The notes beneath the pieces were generated by a model. It was not told the origin of the DNA. It did no database searches and saw nothing but the letters and a program-made list of their open reading frames with translations. A stretch of DNA of 64,000 bases, from assembly GCA_015522145.1 (NCBI GenBank), contig WAMV01000007.1:15470-79469 (forward strand), given 5' to 3'. Each line of letters opens with the position of its first letter. The first letter of the stretch is position 1. Below, one piece after another: positions 9,490 through 30,130 of the stretch. The position numbers and the translations under genes are program-made. This DNA comes from Candidatus Aenigmatarchaeota archaeon. Its GTDB lineage: Archaea; Aenigmatarchaeota; Aenigmatarchaeia; CG10238-14; WAMV01.

Positions 9490-9538
9490 ACCTGTAATAA
9501 AAATTTATTTGAGCTTATCCCTTTAAAAATAAAATTGT

Positions 9539-10940: not shown

Positions 10941-11309
10941 TTATCTCTCCTCCAACACAATTGTTATGTTAGTTGACTTTCTTCTTCTTGCGGCAAACTT
11001 TGCTTTCTTAGCTGGATAGCTATATAAGGTTGTACCTTTATCTGCTTTTGCTATTTTAACAAATAGCTTATCTTCTTTCATATTTTTTTGTCTTGCGTTA
11101 GCCTCTGCTGCTTTCAGAACTTCTAAAATAACTTTAACAGTTTTAGTATAGTATTTCCCATCTATGCTCCTTTTTTTATCCAACAAATCTTGCAAAATTT
11201 TCTTTGCTTTTTTTAGTGGTTTATTTCTGATCAAAGAACAAACAACAACTGAATTCTTTAGCGATATAGGTTGATTTCTTGCAAAAGCTCTGGTCTGCAT
11301 GGCTATCAC
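10941..11309 (-). CDS. rpl22: 50S ribosomal protein uL22
   Basis: Similarity and cluster position. Confidence 0.85.
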
Positions 11310-11692
11310 TTCTTAACAGAAATGTGCTTACTGCTTCTGGAAGCACCTATTCCTGGGGCTGAATGCTCAACTTTCTTAACAGGTATTGAAAACTCACCAA
11401 GCCTTCTTCCTATCATCTCTGGCTTAATTTCAACTGTAACAAATTCTTTGCCATTATAAACTCCTATTTTCCTACCTACCATCTCAGGCAAAATAATCAT
11501 GTCTCGCAAATGAGTTTTTATGTACTTATCTGGATGCTTTCTTAGCTTTTCCAAAAATTTTTTCTCTTCTTCAGTTAAACCTCTAAGCAACTTTCTTCTT
11601 GCTCTTGCCTTAAAAAGTCTAGCCAATTCTTTAAGACTCATTTTCTTCAATTCTTCAAGTGTATAGCCTCTGTAGGTAAACTTCTTTGCCAT
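11306..11692 (-). CDS. rps19: 30S ribosomal protein uS19
   Basis: [21 protein letters not shown] motif. Confidence 0.9.
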
Positions 11693-11778
11693 AGTCTCGA
11701 TAAAAAATTGTTAGCAAGGTGATTTATAAATTTTTGAAATTGCTAGCATTTTAAAAATAAAATCATTAAATAAGAGTT

Positions 11779-13215
11779 ATGGAAGAAGAGAACATTAAGC
11801 CTGAGAAAATACCTGAAAAGGAAAATTTTATAGAATGGTATAATGCTGTAATACAGCTTGCTGAAGTTGTTGATAGGCGTTATCCTGTTAAAGGAACTTT
11901 TGTTTGGATGCCCTTTGGTTTAAAATTGATGAAAAAAATAGTAGCTTACTGGGATAAGCTATTTAAAGAGAATGGTATAGAAGAGGTTTACTTTCCTTTA
12001 TTTGTGCCTTTGGGTTATGCCAAAATAAATGAAGAGTGGTTTTCTGGTTTTAAAGATGAATTGTTTTACATTTATGATTCTCAGGGCAATTCTCTAGATT
12101 TGGTTCTAAGACCTACAGGAGAGCCTGCTATGTACCCAATCTTTAGAATGTGGATAAAAGATGGAAAGCTCCCAATAAAGGTTTACCAAACCGTTTCCTC
12201 TTTTAGAAAAGAGGGGAAGACTACACACACAATGATAAGAGACAGGGAAATAACTTTTTGGTATGAAATTCATACAGTGCATAAAACTAAAGAAGAGGCT
12301 GAAGAAGAAGTAAAAAAACATTTGGATATGAACATAAAAATTTGGAAAGAATTGTTAAACATTCCTCCTATAGTTGTTGCTAAGCCAAAATATGAAATAT
12401 TTCCTGGTGCAGTTTCTGCGCTAGAGTTTTACTCTATTTTGCCTAATGGTAGGCTTCTGGAAAACGGAAGCGTTAATAACTTAGGCCAGGCCTATGCAAA
12501 GAAATTTGATTTGTATATTGTGGAAAATGGAAAAAAGGAGTATTGCTGGCAAGTGTGTACGGGCAATGGTGCCAGATACTTGGTAGCTGTTATAGCTTTG
12601 CATGGAGATGAAAGAGGTTTAGTATTGCCTCCAAAAATTGCGCCTATAGAGGTTGTTATAATTCCTATTTACACAAAAGAAAACAAAGAAGGTGTTTTGG
12701 AAGAAGCTAAAAAGCTTGAAAAAAAGCTAAAAGAATTTGGCTTCAAAGCTTATGCTGATTTAAACGAAAAGATTACACCTGGTGAGAAATTCAACATATG
12801 GGATATAAAAGGCATACCTATAAGAATAGAGCTCGGCCCAAAAGAAATAGAAAGCCAAATACTAACTGTGTACAGAAGGGATAGGAAAGAAAGAATGAAA
12901 ATAAAATACAATGAAATAGAAAAAATAAAAGAATTGTTAAACCAAATAAGTGAAGATCTCTACGATAAAGTTCAAAACTTTTATGATGAAGTAATAAAAA
13001 GAGCCAATTCTTGGGAAGAAGTAGAAAAAATAGTTAAAGAGGGTAAAGTAGCTAAAGCAAATTGGTGTGAAAGTAAAGAATGTTATGATGAAATTTCTAT
13101 GCGTATAGAAAGTGTTGAGGCAATAGGAACGTTGATAGATGAAAAAGAAAATGGTAGCTGCGTGATTTGTGGTAAGGAAACTGAGAAGCTTGCGTTAATT
13201 GGTAAGGTTTATTGA
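11779..13215 (+). CDS. proS: Prolyl-tRNA synthetase (archaeal/eukaryotic type)
   Basis: Class II motifs, 478 aa, C-terminal zinc-binding domain (CVICGKE). Sits antisense between rps19 and rpl2. Confidence 0.9.
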   Translation: MEEENIKPEKIPEKENFIEWYNAVIQLAEVVDRRYPVKGTFVWMPFGLKLMKKIVAYWDKLFKENGIEEVYFPLFVPLGYAKINEEWFSGFKDELFYIYDSQGNSLDLVLRPTGEPAMYPIFRMWIKDGKLPIKVYQTVSSFRKEGKTTHTMIRDREITFWYEIHTVHKTKEEAEEEVKKHLDMNIKIWKELLNIPPIVVAKPKYEIFPGAVSALEFYSILPNGRLLENGSVNNLGQAYAKKFDLYIVENGKKEYCWQVCTGNGARYLVAVIALHGDERGLVLPPKIAPIEVVIIPIYTKENKEGVLEEAKKLEKKLKEFGFKAYADLNEKITPGEKFNIWDIKGIPIRIELGPKEIESQILTVYRRDRKERMKIKYNEIEKIKELLNQISEDLYDKVQNFYDEVIKRANSWEEVEKIVKEGKVAKANWCESKECYDEISMRIESVEAIGTLIDEKENGSCVICGKETEKLALIGKVY

Positions 13216-13919
13216 GTTTGTTTTTTCCTTCTTTTCCTGACACCAACTCTTCTTGCTGCTATGCTACCTACTTTAGCTCCTGGTGGGGCATGCCTGCTAA
13301 CAACTTTCTGTCTTGGTCTGTGGCTTTTTCCACCAAATGGATGGTCTACAGGATTCATAACGTTTGCTTTAACCCTAGGATAAAGTTTTCCTCTTGCTTG
13401 CATGGCTATATGCTTCTTTCCAGCCTTAACCCAAGGCTTTTCTTTTATTCCAGCTGCTGCTGGAACTCCTATGGTTGCTAAGCATTTCTCATCAAGCTCT
13501 TTAAGCTTACCACTAGCTAGTTGAATTATTACCTTATCTTTTGTTTTTCCAACAACAGTAGCATAGCTACCTGCACTTCTACAAAGCTTAGGTCCAGAAC
13601 CTGGATAAGTTTCTATACCAAAAATTTTGGTGCCTTCTGGTATGTTCTTGAGCTGAGCTATGCTACCTGTTGTTAGTTGAGAATTGAAATAAACTGTGTC
13701 CCCAACTTTTATTCCCATTGGGGCAATGTTCAAAAATTGCTCTCCCTCATTAGTCTTGATTATCATAACAGGAGCGCTTCTTCCAGGATCATGAAGTATG
13801 TCAACAACCTTGCCTGTGGTAAAAGGTTTATACTCAACTTTACCAACATACCTATGGCTAGGAGCCCTATACCTTGGTCCTCCTTTACCCCTGGCCCTAG
13901 CAATTATTCTCTTACCCAT
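13209..13919 (-). CDS. rpl2: 50S ribosomal protein uL2
   Basis: GRSAPVMIIK and HPFGG motifs. Confidence 0.9.
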   Translation of the reverse strand: MGKRIIARARGKGGPRYRAPSHRYVGKVEYKPFTTGKVVDILHDPGRSAPVMIIKTNEGEQFLNIAPMGIKVGDTVYFNSQLTTGSIAQLKNIPEGTKIFGIETYPGSGPKLCRSAGSYATVVGKTKDKVIIQLASGKLKELDEKCLATIGVPAAAGIKEKPWVKAGKKHIAMQARGKLYPRVKANVMNPVDHPFGGKSHRPRQKVVSRHAPPGAKVGSIAARRVGVRKRRKKQTQ

Positions 13920-13927
13920 AACATCAC

Positions 13928-14206
13928 CTACATTATACCTAGCTTAGTTGCTACATCTATAGCTTTATATTCTGGCTTTAGCTTAATTATTGCTTTCTTT
14001 TCACCTTTAAAAGTTATCATTGTGTTAACCTTATCCACTTTAACCTGGAAAAGTTTTTCAAAAGCCTCCTTTATTTGCTGCTTATTTGCTTTTCGATCCA
14101 CTATAAAGGTTATTTTATTTTCTTTCTCAATTAGGCTAATTGTTTTTTCAGTTACATAAGGGTACTTCAATATTTTAAAAGGGTCTTTTAGCTTAGTTTT
14201 TGCCAT
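13928..14206 (-). CDS. rpl23: 50S ribosomal protein uL23
   Basis: [11 protein letters not shown] motif. Confidence 0.85.
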
Positions 14207-15015
14207 ATTTCTCCCAACCTCTCTATAGCTGATTTTGTAAATATTGTTAGCCTGCCAGGATGTGCTCCTGGTGCAAGATATTCTGCGCTCAAATTCTCAA
14301 CCCTAACAACATGACAGCCAGGCAAGTTTTTAATAGCTTTGCCTATTCCCTCATCTTTATCCACCACAAATAATATGCCTACTCTTTTCCTATATCTTCT
14401 GCCTCTCATCTTGCCTTTGCCAGCCCTAACTTTCTTTTTCTTAATTCTTTTTAGCTCTTCTTCCAAGCCAATCTTCTTTAAAAACTCTACAAGCTCTTTG
14501 GTTTTAGAGATTTTTTGAATATCGTCCTCTACCACTATAGGCAAAGAAGATAAGTTTTGAACTTTGTGGCCTCTGGCTTGTACAAGCTCTTTGACTGCAG
14601 TGGCTGCTATCGCTGAAGCTATGGCAAGCCTTCTCTCTTTTTTGTTTATTTTTTGCTCCCAGACTTTCTCAACTTTTGGTGGATGGGCACGCATACCTTT
14701 CCTTACATTACTAGACCTTCTAGCAACGAACATCATATGGGGTGGTGCATTACCATGAATTCTTGCATGCCTTGCCATTTCCCTATCCATCATTAAGTAC
14801 TCTGCCCTTAGCCTTCTTCTGCCATGATAATGAGCTGAAGTTCTCTTGCCTGCATAAACATCTGTACCATAAGGTTGCCTTTTCTTGCTTTGCGTAGCTA
14901 GAAATGCTCTTTTTATCAAATCCTCCCTAATAGGAGTGGAAAAAACTTTTGGTAGCTTTACTTTGCCTACTACTTCACCATTTATCGAGTAAAGGTTAGC
15001 CTCTTTCATAAACAA
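14188..15015 (-). CDS. rpl4: 50S ribosomal protein uL4
   Basis: Similarity and position. Confidence 0.9.
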
Positions 15016-15976
15016 CCTCCTTTATTGGATAAATTACTTTTTTAAGTTTATGAGGTCTTATAGCTTCCCTTAAAATTATCAACCTCTTTTTTGGGCCGGG
15101 TACAGAGCCGTGAATTAATACATACTTAGTTCTTACTAAACCATATTTGTGATGACCTGATTTTGGATTTATCTCTTGACCATTACCTATCTTGAGAATT
15201 CTTTTATTATATTCTGTTCTTTGTTGAAAGCCTAGCTGTCCAGCTTGGGGAACTGTATAAAGCACTTTCGCAGGATTCTCTGATCCTAGAGTACCAACAT
15301 GTCTTCTTTTCTTTTTTGCTTTTCTTGTCTGGATTTTAACGCCAAACCTCTTGACAGGGCCTGCTGTACCTTTACCTTTGGTTATTCCTATAACATCAAC
15401 CAGAACACCTTCTTCAAAAACCTCGCTTATATCAAGCTCCTTGCCTAGTTTTTGTTTTGCGTATTCCCAAGCATCTTTAGCATTGCCTCCAACTTCGATT
15501 TCAAAAACTTCTGGTTTCTTTTTTCTTACGCCTGAGATTTTTGGCTGAGTAGCTACAATCAGCCTGACTTTCTCTATTTTATCCAAACTGTTTTCTATTT
15601 CCTTAAGTTTTTTGTCTATATCGTGTGGGTTTAATGTTTTTATCTTCCTCTTTATTTCTGGCGGCAAATTTTTGGTCCAAACTTCAGAAAAAACCTTTAA
15701 GCCTTTTGTTGTTTTTTCATACACTCTTATACCCACAACAAGTAGGGGTGGGACCTCTATTATAGTTGCTGGCAAAGCTATATCTTCGTTATAGCTTAAT
15801 GAAGTTTGGACAGGGTCCTTAGCTATTACGTGAACCATACCGACTTTGTAGCCTGCGAAAGCTAATGGCTTTACTTTTTCGCTTTTAGGAAAGTTTATTC
15901 TTGGATAGATTCTTCTAGCTCTAACTCTAGGATAAAAAGCCATGCTTCCTGCTCTTGGCTTGCTATCTTTTACCAT
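14996..15976 (-). CDS. rpl3: 50S ribosomal protein uL3
   Basis: FAGYKVGMVHV motif. First gene of the minus-strand half-cluster. Confidence 0.9.
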   Translation of the reverse strand: MVKDSKPRAGSMAFYPRVRARRIYPRINFPKSEKVKPLAFAGYKVGMVHVIAKDPVQTSLSYNEDIALPATIIEVPPLLVVGIRVYEKTTKGLKVFSEVWTKNLPPEIKRKIKTLNPHDIDKKLKEIENSLDKIEKVRLIVATQPKISGVRKKKPEVFEIEVGGNAKDAWEYAKQKLGKELDISEVFEEGVLVDVIGITKGKGTAGPVKRFGVKIQTRKAKKKRRHVGTLGSENPAKVLYTVPQAGQLGFQQRTEYNKRILKIGNGQEINPKSGHHKYGLVRTKYVLIHGSVPGPKKRLIILREAIRPHKLKKVIYPIKEVVYERG

Positions 15977-15996
15977 ATTCTAGCCTCTTTTTTGGT

Positions 15997-16007
15997 ATAT
16001 TATTAAT
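15997..16007. promoter_or_regulatory. Near-palindromic AT-rich element (TATATTATTAA), candidate shared TATA box for divergent leaderless rpl3 and HIT-like transcripts
   Basis: Only 54 bp separate the rpl3 ATG (15976) and the HIT ATG (16031). The element lies about 21-31 nt upstream of each start. Confidence 0.3.
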
Positions 16008-16030
16008 TTTTGGATAAGGTTAATATAGTT

Positions 16031-16504
16031 ATGGTAGATTGTGTAATTTGTTCTATAGCTCAAAAGAAAATTAAATCCTTTATTATCTATGAGAGCTCTG
16101 ACTTTATAGCATTTTTAGACATAATGCCTAGAGTTAAAGGCATGACAATTGTTGCTCCAAAAGAGCATGTAACTAGCTTAGTAGATTATGATAAAGCATT
16201 TGAGCTAATGAAAACAGTTTTGAAAGTTGCTAAACAAATTAAGGTCGAATTAAATGCAAAATCTGTAATAATTAGCAATTTACCCACACAATCCGGCCAT
16301 TTAATAATTAAACTGTACCCTATAAAAGAAGATACAGAATTCCCCTTATTTGAAAAAGATCCCATAAGGTTAGATGAAAAAGATCTAATGGATCTTTTAG
16401 AAAAATTGAAAATAGAAGAAATTGAAGAGTATGAAAAAAAGAAAATTCAAGAAAGGGATGTAGAATATATGGAAAAATTAAAACGGGAGTGGGAGTTTAC
16501 TTAA
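16031..16504 (+). CDS. HIT-family-like protein with degenerate histidine triad and acidic coiled-coil C-terminal tail
   Basis: MVDCVICSI...FLDIMPRVKGMTIVAPKEH matches the HIT fold. The triad position reads GHLIIKL rather than HxHxH. The ORF track's start at 16010 is a TTG. The ATG at 16031 fits HIT N-termini better. Confidence 0.45.
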   Translation: MVDCVICSIAQKKIKSFIIYESSDFIAFLDIMPRVKGMTIVAPKEHVTSLVDYDKAFELMKTVLKVAKQIKVELNAKSVIISNLPTQSGHLIIKLYPIKEDTEFPLFEKDPIRLDEKDLMDLLEKLKIEEIEEYEKKKIQERDVEYMEKLKREWEFT

Positions 16505-16536
16505 TTTTTTAAACCCCGTTTAAAAACTAAATTATT

Positions 16537-17028
16537 ATGGTTAAACTAGAGACTGTTAAAATAGAAGCTAGGGAAGGAGTTAATGTTATAATTGGTACAT
16601 CTCATTTCATAAAAACCGTAGAAGATTTATATGAGGCTTTAGTTAATAGCGTACCAGATATAAAGTTTGGTTTAGCATTTTGTGAAGCCTCTGGAGACAG
16701 GCTAGTAAGGTATGATGGAAATGATGAAGAGCTTATAGAATTAGCAAAACAAAAAGCTTTAGAGATTGGAGCTGGGCATAGCTTCATAATCTTCATAAAA
16801 AATGCTTTTCCCATAAACGTGCTTGATAGAATAAAAGCTGTACCCGAAGTTGTCAATATACTTGCAGCTACTGGCAATCCTGTAGAAATTATAATAGCTG
16901 AGACTGAGCAAGGGAGAGCTATTATTGGTATAGTAGACGGGCAAAAACCTTTAGGTATAGAAGATGAAAACAAAATAAAAGAAAGAAAAGAGTTCTTAAG
17001 AAAAATTGGTTATAAACAACAACCTTAG
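16537..17028 (+). CDS. Conserved archaeal protein, possibly PF04008 (adenosine-specific kinase-like) family
   Basis: 163 aa. Family assignment from memory of motifs ([17 protein letters not shown]), not verified. Confidence 0.3.
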
Positions 17029-17046
17029 CAAATAGTAAGATTTAAA

Positions 17047-17457
17047 TTGAAACCTTCTAAATTCATTAGTATGAGACACAATTTGCTGGCAGATGCGTTA
17101 TCAATGATAAAGAATGCTGAAAGAGTGGGAAAGAAAGAAGTAGTTATACCCGCTAGCAAACTAATAGGTAATGTGCTAGAAGTTATGAAAAAATACAATT
17201 ATATAGAGGGTTATGAATTTGTTGACGACGGCAAATCAGGCAAGTTTAAAGTTAAGCTCATAGGTAAGATTAACAACTGTAATGTTATATCACCAAGGTT
17301 TTCCACAAAGATTGATGAGTTTGAAAAGTGGGAAAAAAGATTTTTGCCAGCAGTTAACTTTGGTATTTTAATTTTAACTACCCCCAAAGGTGTTATGAGT
17401 CATCATGAAGCAAAAAAACTTGGTATAGGTGGTCAGCTTTTAGCTTATGTTTATTAA
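17047..17457 (+). CDS. rps8: 30S ribosomal protein uS8
   Basis: [19 protein letters not shown] motif. Confidence 0.9.
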
Positions 17458-17466
17458 GGTGAAACC

Positions 17467-18009
17467 ATGCCTTTCAAAAAAGTTATAGAAGTGCCAGAAG
17501 ATGTAAGCGTAGAAATTGAAAATTATAAAATAAAAGCTTCTGGTCCCTTAGGTGCGCTAGAAAAGGAACTTAAAGAGCTTGAACGTTTTGATGAAATAAA
17601 GATAGAGAAACAAGACAACAAAATAATTGTTAGAATAGAGGGAAAGGAAAGAAGAAAAGTAAAAGCAATGGCTGGTAAAATAGCTGCTTTAATCAGAAAT
17701 GCTATAAAAGGCGTAAAAGAAGGATTCACTTACAAAATGAGAATTGTTTATTCTCACTTCCCCATAAAAGTTGAAATAAAAGACAATGAAGTAATAATAA
17801 ACAACTTCCTGGGTGAAAGAACGCCAAGAATTGCTAAGATTGTTGGCAACACTAAGGTAGAAATTAAAGGTCAGGATATAATAGTGACATCTGTAGATAA
17901 AGAGGAGGCAGGACAAACAGCAGGAAATATAGAGCAAGCAACCAGAATAACAGGAAAGGACAGAAGAGTGTTTCAGGATGGAATTTTTATAGTGGAGAAG
18001 CCAAAATGA
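17467..18009 (+). CDS. rpl6: 50S ribosomal protein uL6
   Basis: Similarity and position. Confidence 0.9.
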   Translation: MPFKKVIEVPEDVSVEIENYKIKASGPLGALEKELKELERFDEIKIEKQDNKIIVRIEGKERRKVKAMAGKIAALIRNAIKGVKEGFTYKMRIVYSHFPIKVEIKDNEVIINNFLGERTPRIAKIVGNTKVEIKGQDIIVTSVDKEEAGQTAGNIEQATRITGKDRRVFQDGIFIVEKPK

Positions 18010-18482
18010 TGGCGAAAATAGTAAGTTTTGTCTTTTCTCTTTTATCCTATTTTTTCAAAAAACCTACCATAGCCACCGATGTGGTTGTTGAGAAGAATGG
18101 TAAAATTTTGCTTATAAAAAGAACTTTCTGGCCATATGATAATTACTATAGCTTACCAGGGGGCATGGTGGAATATGGAGAAAGAGTTGAAGATGCTGCT
18201 AAACGAGAGCTTTACGAAGAAACTGGTTTAAAAGCTAAGGAATTAAAACTGTTGGGTGTTTTCTCTGACCCCAAAAGAGACCCTAGATGGCATGCTATAA
18301 CTATAGCATTTGCTGTTACTAAATTCAGTGGTCAAATAAGACCTAGCATAGAAAGCAAAGAAGTTGTCTGGATGGACATTAGAAAAGTAAAAAAACTTAA
18401 ATTAGCATTTGACCATAACAAAATCATTAACACTTATTTAAGGTGGAAATATGGTCAATCCAAAGAAAAAAATAAGGTTTAG
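18006..18482 (+). CDS. NUDIX hydrolase
   Basis: Nudix box GGMVEYGERVEDAAKRELYEETGL. Overlaps rpl6 (ATGA) and rpl32e. Confidence 0.75.
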   Translation: MMAKIVSFVFSLLSYFFKKPTIATDVVVEKNGKILLIKRTFWPYDNYYSLPGGMVEYGERVEDAAKRELYEETGLKAKELKLLGVFSDPKRDPRWHAITIAFAVTKFSGQIRPSIESKEVVWMDIRKVKKLKLAFDHNKIINTYLRWKYGQSKEKNKV

Positions 18483-18798
18483 AAGACAGATGAGCGAAGC
18501 TTATGTTAGAGTTAAAGAAAGTTGGCGCAGGCCTAGAGGTCAAACCAATAAAGTTAGAAAAGAGTATAAGGGTAAAATCGCTAAAGTAAAGATTGGTTAT
18601 AAAGCTGATGCCAATCTTAGATTTTTACATCCTTCTGGCTACAAAGAAGTACTAGTTCATAACTTAAAAGAACTGGAAAAGGTGGATCCAAAAACTCAAG
18701 CTGTAAGAATTGCCAGCACTGTTGGTAAAAAGAAGAGAATGAAAATAATCAAAAAAGCCGAAGAGCTTGGAATAAAAGTTTTAAATCCTCAGCTATAA
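18451..18798 (+). CDS. rpl32e: 50S ribosomal protein eL32
   Basis: WRRPRGQTNKVR motif. Confidence 0.85.
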   Translation: MVNPKKKIRFRRQMSEAYVRVKESWRRPRGQTNKVRKEYKGKIAKVKIGYKADANLRFLHPSGYKEVLVHNLKELEKVDPKTQAVRIASTVGKKKRMKIIKKAEELGIKVLNPQL

Positions 18799-19574
18799 GC
18801 TAAGGCTCTTAACAAATCTTTTTTTGTTATTATGCCTACCAAGCTTCCATTTTCTATTACTGGCAGGCCAGAAATGTCATGCTCTAACATTATTTTGGCT
18901 GCCTTGCTCAGAGTATCTTCTGGACTTATTGTTATAACATTTTTGCTCATTATGTCTTGAACTGTATATTGTCTCAATTTTTCATTCCAGTGTTTTCCTT
19001 CTGCTCTTTGCCTAAACTTTTGCAGAAAGTTTGAAATATCAGAATAACAAAGCATGCCTACTAGCTCATTGCCCCTAACAACCGGCAAGCGAGAAATTTT
19101 TTTGTTAATGAGTATTTTTCTTGCCTCTAAAATTCTTGTGGTTGGTGCAACAGTAGTAACTTTTCTATGCATAAATTCCCTAACCTTTCTTTTATCTTGT
19201 ATCAGAGCTTTTATTAAATCCGTTTTTGTAATTATGCCTACTATTTTCTCATTATCAATAACAATTAAGCTAGATATATCATTTTTTAACATTAACTTTG
19301 CGGCTTCCTTTATGTCAGCATTTGCTTTTATAGTTACTAGTTTTTTTGAATAACAAGAAGAAACGTATACGTGAGCGTCTGATATGCTTCTTTCTTTTTC
19401 ATGTCCGAGTCTCCTAGCCAAATCTTTAAAAGTTACTATACCAACAATTTCTTTGTTTTTAGTAACTAAAAGACGAGAAATATTGTGTTTATTCATTAAT
19501 TTTACCGCATTACGCACTGGTGAGTTTGCATCTATAGTAATTAAGTTCTTGTTAGCAAGTTCTATAACCTTCAC
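18789..19574 (-). CDS. CBS-domain protein (four CBS repeats)
   Basis: Repeated hxxPxVxxxGxLVGIITxxDL motifs. Confidence 0.7.
   Translation of the reverse strand: MKVIELANKNLITIDANSPVRNAVKLMNKHNISRLLVTKNKEIVGIVTFKDLARRLGHEKERSISDAHVYVSSCYSKKLVTIKANADIKEAAKLMLKNDISSLIVIDNEKIVGIITKTDLIKALIQDKRKVREFMHRKVTTVAPTTRILEARKILINKKISRLPVVRGNELVGMLCYSDISNFLQKFRQRAEGKHWNEKLRQYTVQDIMSKNVITISPEDTLSKAAKIMLEHDISGLPVIENGSLVGIITKKDLLRALAYS
18819..18825 (+). terminator. Oligo-T tract, candidate archaeal terminator after rpl32e
   Basis: T7 run 21 nt past the rpl32e stop. Confidence 0.3.
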
Positions 19575-19612
19575 AAATATAGTTTTTTGTTTTCCAATTA
19601 AATTTTTATTTT

Positions 19613-20683
19613 ATGAAAAAATCAGGCATCTGTGATTTGCCTTTACATTACGGAAGAGCTCCGGCTTGGCTCTTCAAAAAAATGAAAATCTTGGCTAGAG
19701 AAATTTCCCAAATAATTATAGCTGAATATGGAACCAAGGAATTTTTGAAAAGAATTTCTAACCTTTATTTCTTTCAGTCTTTTGGTTGTGTGATTGGATT
19801 TGACTGGCATAGCTCCGGTCTAACAACAACGGTTTGTGGAGCTTTGAAAGAAAGCAAGTTAGAGGAGTTAGGAATATTTATTACTGGAGGGAAAGGCAGA
19901 ACAAGTACTAAGACACCTGAGGAAATTGTTAAAATAGGACACAAATTTGGAATAAATGATAAAAAAATAGAAAAAATGGTCTATGCGAGCAAAATTACAG
20001 CAAAAATTGATAATAGCGTACTGCAAGATAATTATACTTTATATCACCATACCTTTATTTTCGATGAAAACGGAAATTGGGCTGTTATTCAGCAGGGAAT
20101 GAATGAAAATTCTGGATTTGCCAGAAGATATCACTGGCTATCCTTTAACCTAAAAAATTTTGTAATGGAACCTCATGAAGCAATATGTGCAGAAAAAACT
20201 GAACCCAAAGTTTTAAATTTGGTGTCTAGAAAGAGCAAAGAAACTCAAAACTGCATAGTTGATTTAATAAATGAAAAGAACCTTGGTAAATGGTTGGCAC
20301 CTAAAAACTCACTAATAAAGTACTTAAGAATGCCTGCTAAGCACGAAATAGACAAATTTGTTTATCAAAAAATTTTAGAGCTTCAAAACTTCTCTCCTAG
20401 TAATTTTGAAGAGCTTATTGGCATAAGGGGGGTTGGAGCCAAAACAATAAGAGCCTTAGCTTTAATAAGCAAACTGGTTTATGGTAGTGAGATTGACTGG
20501 AAAGATCCTGCTAAATATTCTTTTGCCCATGGTGGTAAAGATGGTATACCATATCCTGTCGATATCAAAAATTATGAAAAAACCATAAAGTTTTTGGAAG
20601 ACATTGTTCAAGATTCTAGCATAAACAGAAAGGAAAAGCAAGAGGCTTTGAAAAGACTTTATACTAAAACTAAGTTTATATAA
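19613..20683 (+). CDS. Conserved hypothetical protein with C-terminal helix-hairpin-helix (HhH-GPD-like) motif. Possibly DUF763.
   Basis: LIGIRGVGAKTIRALALIS then GIPYPVD resembles the LPGVGxKTA...PVDTHV HhH-GPD signature. N-terminal 260 aa of unknown fold. Confidence 0.4.
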   Translation: MKKSGICDLPLHYGRAPAWLFKKMKILAREISQIIIAEYGTKEFLKRISNLYFFQSFGCVIGFDWHSSGLTTTVCGALKESKLEELGIFITGGKGRTSTKTPEEIVKIGHKFGINDKKIEKMVYASKITAKIDNSVLQDNYTLYHHTFIFDENGNWAVIQQGMNENSGFARRYHWLSFNLKNFVMEPHEAICAEKTEPKVLNLVSRKSKETQNCIVDLINEKNLGKWLAPKNSLIKYLRMPAKHEIDKFVYQKILELQNFSPSNFEELIGIRGVGAKTIRALALISKLVYGSEIDWKDPAKYSFAHGGKDGIPYPVDIKNYEKTIKFLEDIVQDSSINRKEKQEALKRLYTKTKFI

Positions 20684-20704
20684 GTAACCTGCAAATTTAA
20701 TTCT

Positions 20705-21136
20705 ATGACAAATTTAAGGTTGCAAAAAAGGTTAGCAGCACAAATACTCAAAGTGGGAGTAAGCAAAGTTTGGATAGACCCAACTAAAATTGAAGAAGTA
20801 AAAGAAGCTATTACTAAAAATGATGTCAGAAGGTTGATAGAAAAGGGTTATATCAAGAAATTGCCAGATAAACCAAAAATGCCTAAGAAAAGGAGGAAGA
20901 GAAGGGGTCCGGGGAGCAAAAAAGGAGCAAAACATTCTATTGTTGATAAGAAAAGAAGGTGGATAAACACTGTAAGACCATTACGCAAGCTTGCTAAACA
21001 GCTTAAAGAAGAAGGTAAGATTGATCAAAAAACTTTTAAGCAATTGTATAGATGGATAAAGGGTAATATGTTTAGGAGCAGAAGACACATGCTACTTTTC
21101 TTAAAGCAAAGAAAGCTTATTAAGGAAGAGAAATAG
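20705..21136 (+). CDS. rpl19e: 50S ribosomal protein eL19
   Basis: LRLQKRLAAQILKVG motif. Confidence 0.9.
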   Translation: MTNLRLQKRLAAQILKVGVSKVWIDPTKIEEVKEAITKNDVRRLIEKGYIKKLPDKPKMPKKRRKRRGPGSKKGAKHSIVDKKRRWINTVRPLRKLAKQLKEEGKIDQKTFKQLYRWIKGNMFRSRRHMLLFLKQRKLIKEEK

Positions 21137-21180
21137 TTTTGTTTTTATAATAATTTAGGAAAAAATTTAAGTGTGATAGC

Positions 21181-21708
21181 ATGCCAAAATTGAGCCCTAC
21201 CTATAAAATGCCTTTCAGAAGGAGGAGAGAAGGAAAAACTAACTATAGGAAAAGATTAAAGCTATTGCTGTCTGGCAAGCCTAGGCTTGTTGTTAGAAAA
21301 AGTAATCGTTACCTTATAGCTCAAGTAGTTACATACAATCCGAAAGGTGATGTTACAGTAGCTAGCGTTAACAGCAAATTTTTAAAGAAACTTGGCTGGG
21401 AATATTCTTGCAAAAATACGCCCGCTGCCTACTTAACTGGACTGATGATAGGTAAAAAAGCTTTGGAAAAGGGTGTAAAAGAAGCTATTTTGGATATGGG
21501 TCTTTATCCTTCTACCAGGGGCAATAGAATTTATGCTTTAGTTAAGGGTGCCATAGATGCTGGAATGCAAATTCCTGTTAGCGGGGAAATGTTCCCTAAT
21601 GAAGAAAGAATAAAAGGTTTGCACATAGAAGCTTACTTAGAAAAGGCTAAAGGAATGTCAAAAAAATTTGAAGAGATAAAGAAAATTATATTGGGTGATG
21701 CTCAATGA
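21181..21708 (+). CDS. rpl18: 50S ribosomal protein uL18
   Basis: RRRREGKTNYRKR motif. Confidence 0.9.
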   Translation: MPKLSPTYKMPFRRRREGKTNYRKRLKLLLSGKPRLVVRKSNRYLIAQVVTYNPKGDVTVASVNSKFLKKLGWEYSCKNTPAAYLTGLMIGKKALEKGVKEAILDMGLYPSTRGNRIYALVKGAIDAGMQIPVSGEMFPNEERIKGLHIEAYLEKAKGMSKKFEEIKKIILGDAQ

Positions 21709-22421
21709 CAGAAGAAAACAAGCAAGAACAGGAAGAAAAACCTGAACAAATGAAAATTGAAGAAGAAAATCCTCTAGAGAAATGGGAGCCAAAAACAAAA
21801 TTAGGTAAAATGGTTAAAGAAGGTAAGATTAAAAACTTGGATGAAATTCTTGAAAGAGGCTGGAAGATAAGAGAACCTGAAATTGTTGATTGGCTTGAAC
21901 CTAATATGAAAAGTGAGCTTATCTTAATTGGAGGAAGAACTGGAAAGGGTGGAGGTCAGCAAAGAATACCTATCAGAATAACAGCTGTTGTTAAAAAATC
22001 CGGAAAAAGGTTCAGGATGAGCGCAATGGCCGTTGTGGGTAATGAGAAAGGTATAGTTGGTGTAGGATTTGGTAAAGCTAAAGAAGCAAGATTAGCTGTA
22101 GAAAAAGCTATAAGAAAAGCTAAACTCAACTTGATAAAAGTTAAGATGGGTTGTGGAAGCTGGGAATGTAATTGTGGAGAGCCTCATTCCATACCTTATA
22201 AATCAGAAGGCAAGAGTGGTTCTGTAAGAGCTATAATTATGCCCGCTCCTAAGGGCGTGGGTTTGGTAGTGGATGACGAAACAAAGAAGCTAATGAGATT
22301 AGCTGGCATAAAGGACATATGGTCAAAAACGTTTGGTTCAACAACAACAAGGTTTAACTTGATTAAAGCTTATTTCAATGCTCTAAAGAATTTGCATGCT
22401 TATCAAAGGGGTAAGAAATGA
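21705..22421 (+). CDS. rps5: 30S ribosomal protein uS5
   Basis: Similarity and position. Confidence 0.9.
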   Translation: MTEENKQEQEEKPEQMKIEEENPLEKWEPKTKLGKMVKEGKIKNLDEILERGWKIREPEIVDWLEPNMKSELILIGGRTGKGGGQQRIPIRITAVVKKSGKRFRMSAMAVVGNEKGIVGVGFGKAKEARLAVEKAIRKAKLNLIKVKMGCGSWECNCGEPHSIPYKSEGKSGSVRAIIMPAPKGVGLVVDDETKKLMRLAGIKDIWSKTFGSTTTRFNLIKAYFNALKNLHAYQRGKK

Positions 22422-22873
22422 TAGCAGTCATAAGAATTAGGGGTAGGGTGGGAGTAAGGAGAGACATAGAAGATACTCTAAAGCTTTTAAGATTGAAAAG
22501 AGTTAACCATTGTGTCGTTGTGCCAGAAACACCTTCTTATCTAGGTATGATAAAAAAAGTCAAAGACTATGTTGCTTATGGAAAGATAAATTTTGAAACT
22601 TTTTTGGAATTGCTAAAGTGGCGCGGAAGGCTAGAAGGAGATAAAAGACTTACAGCAGAAGAAGTCAAAAAATTGGGTTTTGATAGCATAGAAGATCTTG
22701 CAAGAAAACTTTACAATGGGGAAATAAAGTTTAAAGATGTACCAAAACTTAAGCCTGTATTCAGATTAAGACCCCCAAAAGGCGGTCATAAATCCATAAA
22801 AGAACACTACCCTAGAGGTTCTTTAGGGAATTGGGGAGAAGATATAAACAAATTGCTTGAAAAAATGATTTAA
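22418..22873 (+). CDS. rpl30: 50S ribosomal protein uL30
   Basis: IAVIRIRG motif. Confidence 0.85.
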   Translation: MIAVIRIRGRVGVRRDIEDTLKLLRLKRVNHCVVVPETPSYLGMIKKVKDYVAYGKINFETFLELLKWRGRLEGDKRLTAEEVKKLGFDSIEDLARKLYNGEIKFKDVPKLKPVFRLRPPKGGHKSIKEHYPRGSLGNWGEDINKLLEKMI

Positions 22874-22882
22874 GGTGAAAAT

Positions 22883-23311
22883 ATGGTTGTTAGGAGAAGA
22901 AAAAAGGTAAGGAAGCAAAGAGGCTCCAGAACTTATGGTTGGGGAAGTCAAAAAAAGCACAGAGGTAAAGGTAGCAAGGGGGGTAAAGGCAAAGCTGGAA
23001 TGCACAAACATAAATGGACTTACACAGTAAAATATGAACCAGAGCATTTTGGAAAAAGAGGTTTTAAAAGGCCTATAAAAAACGTTGTTAAAGCTATAAA
23101 TTTGGGTGAGATAGAAAAATTAGTTTCTAAAAATCCCGATGTTGTGAAAAAGGAAAATGGTTCGCAAATAATAGATTTAACAAAACTTGGTTATGAAAAA
23201 GTTTTGGGGAAAGGTAAAATTAGCAAGCCATACGTTATTATAGCAAAGAAGTTTAGTGAAAAAGCAAAGCAAAAAATAGAGGTTGTTGGCGGTAAGGTAA
23301 TAGAATCATGA
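22883..23311 (+). CDS. rpl15: 50S ribosomal protein uL15
   Basis: Gly/Lys-rich N-terminus. Confidence 0.85.
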   Translation: MVVRRRKKVRKQRGSRTYGWGSQKKHRGKGSKGGKGKAGMHKHKWTYTVKYEPEHFGKRGFKRPIKNVVKAINLGEIEKLVSKNPDVVKKENGSQIIDLTKLGYEKVLGKGKISKPYVIIAKKFSEKAKQKIEVVGGKVIES

Positions 23312-24741
23312 AAGAAAACAATGAAAAATCACTGATAGAGAAAATAATCAAATATTTGCCTACTGTTGAAACTCCAAAATACCAAATTTCCACTAAGGAA
23401 AAAATAAAATGGACTGCATTGGTTTTGGGAATATACTTCTTACTTTCCTACACGACCCTTTTTGGTATAGAGCCAAGGGCTTATGAGCAATTCAGATTTT
23501 TTGAAATTGTGTTAGGTTCCAGATTTGGAACTTTAACTACTTTAGGTATCGCACCAATAGTCACTGCAGGTATAATAATGCAATTGCTTGTTGGATCAAA
23601 AATAATAAATTGGGATTTAACAGAGCCTGAAAATAGAAAAAAATTTCAAGCTTGGAATAAATTCTTAGCAATAGTTTTTGCGTTTTTAGAAGGCTTTGTT
23701 TATGTTATTAGCAATACAGTCCCAGCTAGCTCAGCAGCTCTAGTGCCTATAGTGGCTTTACAACTTGCTGCAGGGGCAATCATAATAATACTTCTAGACG
23801 AAATTGTTAGTAAATACGGTATTGGATCTGGTGTGAGTCTATTCATAGCAGCTGGTGTTGCAAGCCAAATTGTTATCAGAATGTTCTCACCATTTCCTTC
23901 AACTTGTACGGTACCAAGCTTGGAGTTATGCATTCCTACTTTAGCTAATCCACCAACAGGATTGTTCTGGGAAGTTATTATTGGATTGTTAACTTCCAAC
24001 TTAAGTCTTGTTATAACCACATTAATACCAATAATTTCTACAATAGTTGTTTTTGCTGTAGTAGCTTATACACAATCTATAAGGGTTGAAATACCTCTTG
24101 AGTTTGGAGCTGCTCGAGGCTTTGGAAGAGTATGGCCTTTAAATTTGTTCTATACAAGCAACATCCCAGTTATATTGGCAGCAGCCCTAATAGCTAACCT
24201 ACAATTGTTTGGCCGTGTTGGATTGGTAGAAACTGAACCTGGTGTGTTCTGTAACTTGCTTGGTTGCTACGATGCTGCTGGCAATGCAATTAGTGGATTG
24301 GCATATTATCTAACCGTGCCTACTAACTTTTTAATTAACTTATTTTCCGGAATTGTTACTGTTAATGAGATAATTAGAGCAATTTTTTACCTTTTCTTCT
24401 TTACGGCTCTTTGTATCATATTCTCAATATTCTGGGTTAATACTAGTGGTATGGATGCCACTAGCGTAGCTGAGCAAATAGAAGCTATAGGCTTTCATAT
24501 ACCTGGCTTCAGATCCCACAGAAAAGTTATAGAAAATATGTTAAACAAATATATACCTGCATTAACCTTTTTAGGTGGTTTGTTGGTTGGCTTGCTTGCT
24601 GTATTTGCTGACTTTACTGGAGCAATAGGCACGGGCACGGGAATACTTTTAACTGTTATGATACTCTATAATTTTTATGAAGTGCTTAAACAAGAACCTG
24701 AAGATCAGCTGCCCACATGGTTAAAAAAGGTGATGTATTAA
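23308..24741 (+). CDS. secY: Preprotein translocase subunit SecY
   Basis: 10-TM protein with SecY motifs. Confidence 0.9.
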   Translation: MKENNEKSLIEKIIKYLPTVETPKYQISTKEKIKWTALVLGIYFLLSYTTLFGIEPRAYEQFRFFEIVLGSRFGTLTTLGIAPIVTAGIIMQLLVGSKIINWDLTEPENRKKFQAWNKFLAIVFAFLEGFVYVISNTVPASSAALVPIVALQLAAGAIIIILLDEIVSKYGIGSGVSLFIAAGVASQIVIRMFSPFPSTCTVPSLELCIPTLANPPTGLFWEVIIGLLTSNLSLVITTLIPIISTIVVFAVVAYTQSIRVEIPLEFGAARGFGRVWPLNLFYTSNIPVILAAALIANLQLFGRVGLVETEPGVFCNLLGCYDAAGNAISGLAYYLTVPTNFLINLFSGIVTVNEIIRAIFYLFFFTALCIIFSIFWVNTSGMDATSVAEQIEAIGFHIPGFRSHRKVIENMLNKYIPALTFLGGLLVGLLAVFADFTGAIGTGTGILLTVMILYNFYEVLKQEPEDQLPTWLKKVMY

Positions 24742-25229
24742 TGGCTCTACCAATAACAGCAATGGTTGGAAAGGCTATGGACAGCGTACTTTATCCTTTG
24801 GCAAGCTTCAATCCAGTCCTTTCTTTAACTATAAGCTCATTGATTATGACTACGTTGCTTTTATCTTTATATCAGTACTTTTACAGGAAGAACAACTTAA
24901 AGGAGCTAAGGCAAAAATTAGAGTTCCTAAAAGAAGAGTTAATTAAAGTTCAAGTAAACAAGAGAAAAGAAGAAATGGAAAAAACGCTGAATGAGTACAT
25001 ACAGCTAAATAACAAGTTCATTAAATTCACTCTCCAAATAATGGTTATAAGCATAATAGTGGGCTTGCTTTTCTTTTCCTGGATGGAATTTAGATTTGAA
25101 AAAACAGCAAAGGTTATTTTACCTGTAAAACTGCCTATAGTAGGAAACCAATTAAATTGGTTTGGTTGGTATCTAATATTATCATTTACTATAGCTTGGG
25201 TAATCAGGAGGTTACTAGAATGGGAGTAA
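24717..25229 (+). CDS. DUF106-family membrane protein (archaeal YidC/Oxa1/EMC3-like)
   Basis: Three TM segments plus a coiled-coil. Sits downstream of secY as in other archaea, here with no adk between them. Confidence 0.5.
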   Translation: MVKKGDVLMALPITAMVGKAMDSVLYPLASFNPVLSLTISSLIMTTLLLSLYQYFYRKNNLKELRQKLEFLKEELIKVQVNKRKEEMEKTLNEYIQLNNKFIKFTLQIMVISIIVGLLFFSWMEFRFEKTAKVILPVKLPIVGNQLNWFGWYLILSFTIAWVIRRLLEWE

Positions 25230-25456
25230 GAAAAAAAAGAGTAAGAACAGCAACTAAAGTAGTAATAAGAAAAGTCAAGAAAAAACCTAAAATTGCTAAG
25301 TGTGCAGTATGTAAAAAGCCGTTGCATGGAGTACCAAGAGAAATACCTTCCCGTATGAGAAAACTGGCAAAAACTGAGAAAAGGCCAGAGAGACCTTTTG
25401 GTGGTTATTTATGTTCAGAATGCATGAGAGATTATTTTAGGAAGGTGATAGCATGA
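25220..25456 (+). CDS. rpl34e: 50S ribosomal protein eL34
   Basis: MGVRKKRVRTATKV...KCAVCKK motif. The AGGAGG SD precedes the internal ATG at 25220. The track ORF begins earlier, at 25157. Confidence 0.8.
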   Translation: MGVRKKRVRTATKVVIRKVKKKPKIAKCAVCKKPLHGVPREIPSRMRKLAKTEKRPERPFGGYLCSECMRDYFRKVIA

Positions 25457-25749
25457 TAGAAGTAGGCAGGATTTGCTACAAAGTTGCTGGCAGAGAAGCT
25501 GGAAGGTATTGTGTCGTTGTAAAAGTAATTAACAGCAATTTTGTTTTAGTGACTGGTCCAAAAAACGTTACTGGAGTTAGGAGAAGAAAAGTTAATATAA
25601 TGCATATTGAGCCAACAAAACACAAGCTTGATATTAAAGAGAATGCTAGCGATGAAGAAGTAGCAAAAGCTTGGCAAAAATCAAAACTTTTAAGCAAACT
25701 AGGCATAAAAGTTGAAAAGAAAACTAAGAAAAAACAAAAGGAAGTTTAG
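25453..25749 (+). CDS. rpl14e: 50S ribosomal protein eL14
   Basis: KOW motif IEVGRICYKVAGREAGRYCVVV. Confidence 0.8.
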   Translation: MIEVGRICYKVAGREAGRYCVVVKVINSNFVLVTGPKNVTGVRRRKVNIMHIEPTKHKLDIKENASDEEVAKAWQKSKLLSKLGIKVEKKTKKKQKEV

Positions 25750-28948: not shown

Positions 28949-29905
28949 ATGTGGTATATTAAGGCTAGAGAAGAAACTTTAGAAGAATTTGGAAAATCTC
29001 CTGAAGAAAGGAGTATAGGGGAGCTTATAGAATCTGCTGTAGTTATTGTTGATAAGCATGCAGGCCCCACAAGCCACCAAATAACGCAATGGACAAAAGA
29101 AATTTTTAACGCTAAAAAAGCTGGTCATGCTGGAACGCTGGACCCACAGGTAACAGGAGTTTTGCCTGTAGCTTTAAATGATGCAACAAAAGCTATGATA
29201 GTTTTGATGGGTCTGGATAAAGAGTATGTTGGAGTAATGCATCTACATAAAGAAGTTAGCGAAGGTGTTTTAAGGCAAGCCATGCAGAAATTTGTTGGAG
29301 AAATAATTCAAGTACCTCCAAAAAGGTCTGCTGTAGCAAGAAGACCTAGGAGAAAAAGAGTTTATGTATTTGATATAGTAGAAATGGAAGGAAAAGATGT
29401 TTTATTTTATGTTAAATGTGAAGCAGGCGTATATGTAAGGAAGTTAGTGCATGATTTGGGCCAAGCTCTAGGCATAGGTGCTCATATGACAGAGTTGAGA
29501 AGAACTAAAGCTGGTCATTTTGATGAAAAGCAAGCTAAGCCTTTAATCGAAATTAGAGATGCTTACGAAATTTGGAAAAGTGAAGGTGATGAAAGCATGT
29601 TAAAAGAAATTTTAATACCTATAGAGCATGCTATACCACATGTGAAAAAAGTGTTTGTTAAAGATACTGCTATAGCGCAAATATGTAATGGTGCCCCTGT
29701 TTACGCTAGTGGGCTCGTAAGAATACAAAAAGATATAAAGCCTGGTGAAATAGTCGGAATTTTTAGCTTAAAAAATGAATTGATTGCATTAGGCATAGCT
29801 AAAATGAGTGCAAAGGAAATGTACAATAAAAGTAGGGGAATTGCTGTAAGAACTGACAGGGTTATAATGAAAAAAGATGTTTACCCTGATTTCAGAAAAA
29901 AATAA
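28949..29905 (+). CDS. cbf5: tRNA/rRNA pseudouridine synthase Cbf5 (H/ACA RNP catalytic subunit)
   Basis: HAGTLDPQVTGVLPV TruB motif and C-terminal PUA domain. Confidence 0.85.
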   Translation: MWYIKAREETLEEFGKSPEERSIGELIESAVVIVDKHAGPTSHQITQWTKEIFNAKKAGHAGTLDPQVTGVLPVALNDATKAMIVLMGLDKEYVGVMHLHKEVSEGVLRQAMQKFVGEIIQVPPKRSAVARRPRRKRVYVFDIVEMEGKDVLFYVKCEAGVYVRKLVHDLGQALGIGAHMTELRRTKAGHFDEKQAKPLIEIRDAYEIWKSEGDESMLKEILIPIEHAIPHVKKVFVKDTAIAQICNGAPVYASGLVRIQKDIKPGEIVGIFSLKNELIALGIAKMSAKEMYNKSRGIAVRTDRVIMKKDVYPDFRKK

Positions 29906-29937
29906 AGTTTAAAAAATCAACCAAAGCAAATTAAAAT

Positions 29938-29967
29938 TAGTCTCAAGGTCTGATAGCAAGATGATGA
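29938..29967 (+). ncRNA. Box C/D-like guide element in the tRNA-Ser 5' leader: 12-nt guide, CUGA (D'), 7-nt spacer, AUGAUGA (C') K-loop
   Basis: 29938-29950 is a 13-bp complement (11 Watson-Crick, one G-U, one C-G) of 30013-30025, which covers anticodon stem, loop and intron start. The D'-N7-C' arrangement matches a K-loop. Confidence 0.35.
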
Positions 29968-29982
29968 GCACTGGCTTTGCAT

Positions 29983-30130
29983 GCCCGGGTGGCGGAACCA
30001 GGCTAACGCGCCGGCCTTGAGACTACCATGAGAATGTTGGCTTGACCCTGAAAAACATGATGATAAGGAGGTGAGTCGAGAAAGCCGGTGCCCCTTACGG
30101 GGCGTGTGGGTTCAAATCCCACCCCGGGCG
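29983..30130 (+). tRNA. tRNA-Ser (anticodon UGA) with ~61-nt intron at the canonical 37/38 position (30022-30082)
   Basis: The acceptor stem GCCCGGG/CCCGGGC, the T-arm GUGGG-UUCAAAU-CCCAC, the long variable arm and the anticodon loop CUUGAG^A were folded by hand. Discriminator G. No CCA encoded. Confidence 0.85.

Follow-up and report, generated by a model that had tools for sequence, protein, structure and literature searches.

The 5' leader of a tRNA-Ser(UGA) gene in an Aenigmatarchaeota archaeon carries a box C/D-type guide that is antisense to the anticodon loop and the first intron bases of its own precursor. The gene lies in a stretch of 64,000 nucleotides (nt) from Candidatus Aenigmatarchaeota archaeon contig WAMV01000007.1, hereafter the window; positions are counted from its first letter, and the parts of the tRNA-Ser(UGA) transcription unit are on the forward strand. 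A sequence-only reading of the window had proposed this guide. Comparison with related loci shows that the finding is real, conserved and essentially correctly interpreted, insofar as function can be judged from sequence. The element that must be reassigned lies in the intron of the same gene and belongs to the sR13 family of C/D small RNAs (sRNAs).

The leader segment 29938-29950 (UAGUCUCAAGGUC) forms 12 Watson-Crick pairs and one G-U pair with 30013-30025. It runs into a D'-type box, CUGA (29950-29953), which is followed by the 7-nt linker UAGCAAG (29954-29960) and a C'-type box, AUGAUGA (29961-29967), so that, as had been proposed, the guide abuts a D'/C' kink-loop (K-loop) motif. C29950 is probably unavailable for the target because it is the first base of the D' box, and U29938 probably lies just 5' of the transcription start (see below). 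This leaves a likely working duplex of 10-11 bp, formed by 29939/40-29949 with 30014-30023/24; the orthologues described below conserve the same duplex length. The guide proper, AGUCUCAAGGU (29939-29949), is complementary to nt 30-31 of the anticodon stem, nt 32-37 of the loop and nt 1-2(3) of the intron, and its target is GCCUUGAGACU (30014-30024). A29945, the fifth base 5' of CUGA (the N+5 position), pairs with the wobble base U34 (30018), which is the predicted 2'-O-methylation site, in agreement with the register first suggested.

Could such an arrangement arise by chance in AT-rich DNA? The pattern CTGA-N3-9-RTGATGA has two matches on both strands of the 64 kb, both of them in the tRNA-Ser precursor, against 0.34 in shuffled sequence. 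The guide:target duplex has a computed energy of -18.1 kcal/mol; shuffled guides gave -4.5 +/- 2.1 kcal/mol, the best of 500 reaching -14.4. Rfam at E <= 10 assigns a C/D family to neither the leader nor the intron module, the only match being one of 10 bits to sR3 at 29957-80. A leader hairpin predicted with ViennaRNA (CUCA/UGAG plus GUCU/AGAU) is broken by a common variant of the C' box, AUGAAGA, and was set aside as not conserved, though it may compete as an alternative fold. The leader guide and the D' guide of the intron can form only 5 bp with each other, and this pairing was likewise rejected.

Orthologous loci were collected in two ways. One set follows cbf5 synteny and was chosen blind to the leader. 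The other comes from a single metagenome scan whose pattern held fixed only the core of the guide, CUGA and the 5' end of tRNA-Ser, neither the C' box nor the anticodon being demanded. The total is 43 loci with 39 distinct guide:target rows, several of which are from close relatives. In the cbf5 set the leader module precedes 16 of the 16 tRNA-Ser(UGA) genes that adjoin cbf5 and have G37 (L002-4, L006, L009-11, L017, L019, L021-23, L025, L027, L030 and the window), with the consensus ..(G/A)(A/G)CUCAAG(G/A)N, CUGA, a 4-9-nt loop and AUGA(U/A/G)GA. The sequence-only reading had staked its proposal on the complementarity recurring at orthologous loci, and there it is. The module is absent from all six tRNA-Ser(UGA) genes of the A37 type, of which L018, L024, L031 and L053 are intron-less and L028 and L029 have an intron, and it was not found before the tRNA-Ser(GGA) genes that stand next to cbf5 in other phyla.

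The metagenome scan returned 62 stretches. The 29 AT-rich archaeal matches all precede tRNA-Ser(UGA) genes with G37 and a 37/38 intron; the GC-rich matches lie in bacterial coding DNA and are chance, and one further match (L122), before a tRNA-Leu(CAA)-like gene, lacks a C' box. CUGA is invariant in all 43 loci, having been found freely in the cbf5-synteny set and being part of the search pattern in the metagenome set. The C' box is the more telling feature, since it is present in 29 of the 29 metagenome loci though not demanded, and in 4% of random spacers of the same length. Every one of the 43 loci has a C'-like box (AUGAUGA in 20, AUGAAGA in 15, other variants in 8), keeps the G and A residues of both boxes that are essential to a K-loop, and has an intron at 37/38. 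In 33 loci the linker measures 6-7 nt, and its last bases are usually AAG. Between the C' box and G1 of the tRNA there are 15 nt in the window (29968-29982) and 0-17 nt in orthologues, with no conservation of sequence, so the module has no fixed register to the tRNA body. Among the 98 tRNA genes in the DNA collected, such a leader is confined to tRNA-Ser(UGA).

Pair counts were made on one alignment (A1) of the 39 distinct rows. Pairing in register holds in 92.3% of cells and falls to 46-49% when the partner is slid by one column. Double-sided changes occur in 4 pairs and 11 cells, a value that 1 of 500 shuffles reached. Guide position -2 and anticodon-stem nt 31 form G-C in 31 rows and A-U in 5; guide -9 and intron nt 1 form A-U in 27, G-U in 8, G-C in 2 and U-A in 1, the last being the window; guide -10 and intron nt 2 form G-C in 33, A-U in 2 and G-U in 2. 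The six loop pairs are invariable, variation being confined to the flanks, and pairing fades beyond guide position -11. What is conserved is thus a duplex of 10 bp, covering nt 30-37 and two intron bases, which is the usual size of an archaeal C/D guide, with U34 at N+5 in all loci. The compensatory changes at stem nt 31 and intron nt 1-2, taken with the 16 cbf5-linked genes and the 43 loci, bear out the proposal of a leader guide complementary to its own anticodon loop.

The intron bases in this duplex matter for the order of events. The 61-nt intron (30022-30082) is at the canonical 37/38 position and has a canonical hBHBh' bulge-helix-bulge (BHB) motif. The motif is made up of the anticodon stem (30011-15/30084-88), a 4-bp central helix (30016-19/30077-80) flanked by the 5' bulge AG|A (30020-22) and the 3' bulge AA|A (30081-83), and an outer helix (30023-27/30070-75). 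The leader-guide target overlaps the bulge at the 5' splice site as well as the central helix on its 5' strand. The leader duplex (30014-30024) and the BHB motif use the same nucleotides and are mutually exclusive, so any methylation would have to precede splicing, which is consistent with what had been suggested from the pairing with intron bases. Folding bears on this competition as well: the fold in which the duplex is forced has -66.9 kcal/mol and the minimum free energy fold -70.7, a difference of about 4 kcal/mol. In two genes with two introns (L085, L135) the partner of the base beside D' is the final base of the upstream intron, which again points to the unspliced precursor as the target.

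Where does the transcript begin? A TATA-like box, TTTAAAAA, can be read in the sequence at 29908-29915, 3 nt after the cbf5 stop codon, and an alignment of 42 loci anchored at the D' box has a weak TTTAAA, conserved in position, at -38..-33. In archaea the usual distance from TATA box to transcription start is about 26 nt. The spacing in Nanoarchaeum equitans promoters is -27 (PMC3491384). From the TATA-like box and the usual spacing we infer a start at about -11/-10, that is at A29939 or G29940, and the guide would then probably be the first 10-11 nt of the primary transcript. The predicted distance from start to D' equals the conserved 10-bp duplex length and fits the canonical guide length of 10-12 nt.

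A C/D guide normally sits between further boxes, and these were looked for. No C-like box stands 5' of the leader guide in any of the 42 aligned loci, the TATA-like signal being there instead. A box D in the trailer that would pair with the leader AUGAUGA across the acceptor stem was considered and rejected: the window has no CUGA within 15 nt of the tRNA 3' end, and just 5 of 37 loci have one there. Nor can tRNA nt 11-14 (CGGA) serve as a D box 12 nt after C', for they read CAUA in the other tRNA type and the distance from C' to G1 varies from 0 to 17 nt. Because there is neither an upstream C box nor a conserved trailer D box, the leader module is a natural, autonomous half-mer with a single K-loop. 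It has the internal D'/C' K-loop and the 10-12-nt guide with N+5 target of a canonical C/D sRNA and lacks the terminal C/D kink-turn (K-turn). We accordingly file it as working like a C/D guide and not as a canonical member of the class.

One sub-clade (L085, L089, L097, L098, L104-L106, L118, L120, L133, L135 and L140) has a further feature: the 5' end of the tRNA, (U)GCCGAG(G), is directly repeated just 5' of the guide. The repeat lies some 15-25 nt upstream, about where TATA spacing puts the transcription start. A U-rich ...UUUUGGU just before tRNA G1 is available to it as a partner in L097, L104, L106, L120 and L140, where the pairing would close guide and K-loop as a hairpin; in L098 and L135 it cannot form the closing stem, and the window has no repeat. 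The repeat may be the scar of an insertion (a target-site duplication), an initiator region that was retained, or a stem with a stabilising role.

The second element is within the intron. The sequence-only reading had noted a second CUGA-N5-AUGAUGA there, which is indeed present, and had left its guide without a target. That part does not stand: the motif is the internal D'/C' part of a complete C/D sRNA, homologous to Nanoarchaeum sR13 and with likely targets in 16S rRNA. The boxes run C-D'-C'-D with spacers of about 12 nt, and the same layout is found in 13 loci. A variant box C, AUGAGAA (30028-30034), is followed by a 13-nt D' guide, UGUUGGCUUGACC (30035-30047), whose core GGCUUGAC is conserved in the 13 parsed loci and identical to the D' guide of N. 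equitans sR13 (NeqsR13). Then come the internal K-loop of D' box CUGA, 5-nt loop and C' box AUGAUGA (30048-30063), a 12-nt D guide, UAAGGAGGUGAG (30064-30075), whose core GGAGGUGA is common to the NeqsR13 D guide, and a variant box D, UCGA (30076-30079). The variant boxes C and D pair as G.A, A.G, G-C and A-U; that is, G.A/A.G are retained, and G-C and A-U replace U.U and G-C. Position 6 of box C and position 1 of box D covary across the 13 loci (A-U, G-C, U-A). Box D also shares bases with the BHB central helix on its 3' strand (30077-80), so that the terminal K-turn would form only after the splice motif has opened or the intron has been excised.

NeqsR13 itself reads GAUGAUGU-AGGUGGCUUGACU-CUGA-UUA-GUGAUGA-GAGGAGGUGAUA-CUGA (supplement, PMC4644070). 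Mass spectrometry and RiboMeth-seq map its products as Am1408, with pairing to 16S 1405-1415, and Am1534 in the anti-Shine-Dalgarno tail, with pairing to 1531-1540 (PMC5389701). The D' guide of the intron places the A of GUC[A]AGCC at N+5, that is A1408, as in N. equitans; the D guide is complementary to the 16S 3' tail UCACCUCC and places C1535 at N+5, against A1534 in N. equitans. The intron guides thus likely target 16S nt 1405-1413 (predicted sequence GUCAAGCCA) and the anti-Shine-Dalgarno tail; no rRNA gene is present in the window or in any fetched locus. A target for the D' guide in the D-loop of its own tRNA (9 bp with 2 G-U in the window) was tried and rejected in favour of 16S 1405-1413, given NeqsR13; the pairing breaks at the target position in L009, where the guide is conserved. 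Sequence inspection found no match in the T-arm or acceptor for the intron D guide. The presence of a conserved, complete C/D sRNA in the same transcript as the leader guide is indirect support for the use of C/D machinery by the lineage.

Several relatives show other states of these elements. The introns of L025 and L144, and the 10-14-nt introns of L002-L004, L023 and L027, look like deletion derivatives, e.g. ..CAAUGAAA..GAAUUGAGAAAG, with C- and D-like remnants only, which suggests that short tRNA-Ser(UGA) introns arose by loss of the sRNA while the ends that form the BHB were kept. In L060 (about 4110-4300) a tRNA-Ser(UGA) gene with G37 starts directly after the promoter, without a leader guide; its intron has a box C, an sR13-type D' guide (AUAUGGCUUGACU), D' and C', and a different 3' half without a clear D box. 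Leader guide and intron guide can therefore occur independently. About 20 nt before the intron-less A37-type gene of L024, which is at 4486, there is AGGCUUGAUAU-CUGA, resembling the sR13 D' guide core, with no C' box that can be recognised; decay or relocation of a guide might account for it, or chance. In the window, the spacer at 29968-29982 (GCACUGGCUUUGCAU) includes UGGCUUUG, similar to the core UGGCUUGA of the sR13 D' guide; orthologues have no counterpart.

What does the leader module do? On the sequence evidence we think it likely that the leader guide, with L7Ae, Nop5 and fibrillarin, directs 2'-O-methylation of U34 in unspliced pre-tRNA-Ser(UGA). L7Ae would bind the leader K-loop and recruit Nop5-fibrillarin; the guide would pair with nt 30-37 and the first two or three intron bases of the unspliced precursor, either of the same or of a sister molecule; and the 2'-OH of U34, opposite the fifth guide nucleotide 5' of D', would be methylated before splicing. 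RNase P would remove the leader afterwards, or earlier, in which case a free guide of about 30 nt would be left. The excised intron sRNA would guide methylation of 16S rRNA at A1408 and in the anti-Shine-Dalgarno tail.

Several points weigh against methylation by the leader module. In the first place, the intergenic DNA is AT-rich and the TATA signal weak, so a start downstream of the guide is possible. Second, single-site C/D ribonucleoproteins (RNPs) were active in vitro but not site-specific, both motifs being needed (Hardin & Batey 2006, PMC1635284). If the half-mer is specific, one might speculate that two precursors dimerise on the Nop5 dimer, or that the limited length of a 5'-terminal guide fixes the site. 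Third, tblastn with approximate Methanocaldococcus jannaschii fibrillarin and L7Ae queries gave no match in 0.95 Mb of related DNA, a small sample that says little. Finally, the guide core was a fixed part of the pattern that selected the metagenome rows, so that independent covariation comes from the flanking pairs only, and several rows of the alignment are close relatives.

If U34 is methylated, is the guide acting on its own molecule? The sequence-only reading spoke of a cis guide. Complementarity to its own pre-tRNA is borne out; action in cis is not established, and we hold only tentatively that the half-mer, as a C/D RNP at the 5' end of the pre-tRNA, acts in cis, one transcript then carrying three guides (for its own U34, 16S A1408 and the 16S anti-Shine-Dalgarno tail) with methylation first and splicing and RNase P cleavage following. 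To the same tentative degree we entertain action in trans, which is compatible with U34 methylation: RNase P would free the leader as a mini-sRNA of about 30 nt that methylates other pre-tRNA-Ser molecules, its linkage to the tRNA serving co-transcription only, as with the C/D sRNAs that lie immediately 3' of some tRNA genes. For the pre-tRNA-Trp intron guide, the precedent for self-guiding, the original proposal was action in cis, and later work showed action in trans, as reviews relate. The variable spacer of 0-17 nt between C' and G1, which sets no fixed geometry with the tRNA body, fits a trans-acting RNA too, as does the ability of the leader in one sub-clade to close into a stem that would stabilise the free RNA. 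Instability might, however, be a problem for an RNA of 30 nt that has a single K-loop and whose 5' guide is free.

An antisense element need not transfer a methyl group at all. The leader could be a chaperone or processing timer, perhaps with L7Ae on the K-loop, that keeps the precursor unspliceable or not misfolded, or that orders RNase P and splicing. L7Ae is also a subunit of archaeal RNase P. The mutual exclusion of guide duplex and BHB motif fits such a role; so do the closeness of the C' box to the RNase P cleavage site (17 of the 43 loci have 0-2 nt from C' to G1), the loss of site specificity by half-mer RNPs in vitro, and the chaperone roles that have been discussed for C/D guides on rRNA. 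A chaperone or timer would nevertheless have no need of the exact N+5 = U34 register or of a 10-11-nt guide abutting CUGA, nor would it account for the K-loop G and A residues being kept in both boxes at every locus, and we regard this explanation as unlikely. That the complementarity is chance, or a non-functional relic such as a mobile C/D element inserted before the tRNA gene, is very improbable: C/D sRNAs have been proposed to be mobile, and the direct repeat flanking the module in one sub-clade does resemble an insertion scar, but guide, boxes and register are kept across loci whose Cbf5 is only 60-69% identical to that of the window, with compensatory changes and a C' box far above the 4% expected.

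The nearest known relative of a U34-directed leader guide is that of archaeal pre-tRNA-Trp (Haloferax volcanii; Pyrococcus sR50). There too the guide is inside the precursor of its own target, directs modification at position 34 and acts on the intron-containing form. The pre-tRNA-Trp guide is intronic, however, with four boxes (C, D', C', D) and two guides (C34, U39), whereas the present one is in the 5' leader, has the D'/C' K-loop only and a single guide, and addresses U34 of tRNA-Ser(UGA). A 2014 review calls the pre-tRNA-Trp intron a "unique example" of a part of a pre-tRNA that encodes the modification unit for the same tRNA. The intron of tRNA-Ser(UGA) is not a second case, because the pre-tRNA-Trp type has a complete intronic C/D and C'/D' RNA with two self-directed guides, and sequence inspection found a conserved tRNA complement for neither of the guides here.

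The intron sRNA (30028-30079) shares with N. equitans sR13 the box order, spacers of 12-13 nt and both guide cores. It differs in that NeqsR13 has genome coordinates of its own, whereas here the sRNA is the intron of tRNA-Ser(UGA), with variant terminal boxes (AUGAGAA/UCGA) and a D guide shifted by one. In N. equitans a single sRNA has been reported from an intron, that of tRNA-Met.

Dicistronic units of a tRNA and a C/D sRNA are also known: N. equitans tRNA-Val-sR8, and examples with tRNA-Ser in Ignicoccus hospitalis, tRNA-Pro in Thermoproteus tenax and tRNA-Met (sR44) in Pyrobaculum, besides plant tRNA-snoRNA genes. As in the present locus, guide and tRNA are in one transcript that is split by a tRNA end-processing enzyme. 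In these units, however, the sRNA is complete, lies 3' of the tRNA and is released by RNase Z, and none has been reported to target its host tRNA (Pyrobaculum sR44 has been assigned a 23S target). The leader module is instead upstream, is a half-mer predicted to be released by RNase P, and targets its host.

Two further kinds of guide invite comparison. Synthetic half-mer or single-site RNPs (Hardin & Batey 2006) and C/D-free guides (PMC9670817) resemble the leader module in having one K-turn or K-loop and one guide; they are engineered, and the single-site version lost site specificity in vitro. Trans-acting C/D sRNAs for tRNA position 34 are known as well, including Pyrobaculum sR27 and sR46, which by prediction guide U34 modification of tRNA-Gln and tRNA-Thr respectively, and the Pyrococcus guides for tRNA-Leu, tRNA-Met and tRNA-Trp. 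They share the wobble nucleotide as target, in some cases U34, and differ in being independent, complete genes outside the tRNA precursor. In the literature searched, whose coverage left out most subscription journals, neither a guide located in the 5' leader of a tRNA nor a half-mer guide of natural origin turned up.

The accepted rule is that RNA-guided 2'-O-methylation requires two K-turns and a bipartite guide. A half-mer that is conserved, covaries and keeps its N+5 register exactly offers a test of this rule in nature. If the half-mer RNP does act in cis on its own precursor, site-specific C/D methylation would occur in vivo without a bipartite guide architecture, and in a DPANN archaeon of reduced genome the decoding properties of tRNA-Ser would be coupled to the biogenesis of the small subunit. 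The leader module would be the first methylation guide known from the 5' leader of a tRNA, the sites known so far being tRNA introns, complete sRNAs 3' of tRNAs, and separate genes. One small transcript of a reduced-genome, symbiont-type archaeon would pack guides for the modification of both a tRNA and the 16S decoding centre. For work on the minimal requirements of a C/D RNP, the locus offers a concrete construct.

The tRNA gene is easily overlooked. Rfam reports a single tRNA in the window, at 29983-30130 (RF00005, 43.8 bits), and ARAGORN recovers tRNA-Ser(UGA) at the same coordinates in intron mode; default mode finds no tRNA in the window, so that intron mode is required. The 5' exon (29983-30021; RF00005, ARAGORN -i) contains the anticodon UGA at 30018-30020 and G37 at 30021. 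The 3' exon (30083-30130) has a long variable arm and a G73 discriminator, and CCA is not encoded. Some relatives have a second intron, before nt 32 (L019, L022, L085, L132, L135) or in the 3' acceptor/T region (L025, L144), and even intron mode misnames multi-intron tRNA-Ser(UGA) relatives as Ile, Val, Phe, Thr or Leu. It follows as a rule for annotation that tRNA-Ser(UGA) genes of DPANN genomes are missed or misnamed by default tools, and that sR13-like sRNAs are hidden in their introns.

The window as a whole has a G+C content of 34.6% and matches a metagenome scaffold of 89 kb (ENA ERZ23495147). The tRNA-Ser(UGA) gene starts 78 nt 3' of cbf5 (28949-29905, stop codon 29903-29905), whose product matches Pfam DKCLD, TruB_N and PUA and is 60-69% identical to Cbf5 of its nearest relatives, Aenigmatarchaeota (DPANN) metagenome-assembled genomes (MAGs) of the species-level genome collection. 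Linkage of cbf5 to a tRNA-Ser gene is widespread across many phyla (L001-L080): the tRNA is tRNA-Ser(UGA) in Aenigmatarchaeota and tRNA-Ser(GGA) in Thermoplasmata, Methanomassiliicoccales, Thermofilaceae and one Micrarchaeota MAG. Beside the locus, at 7175-25749, is a large ribosomal-protein/secY cluster (L19e, L18, S5, L30, L15, SecY and others), which places this guide-rich tRNA gene in a neighbourhood of the translation apparatus.

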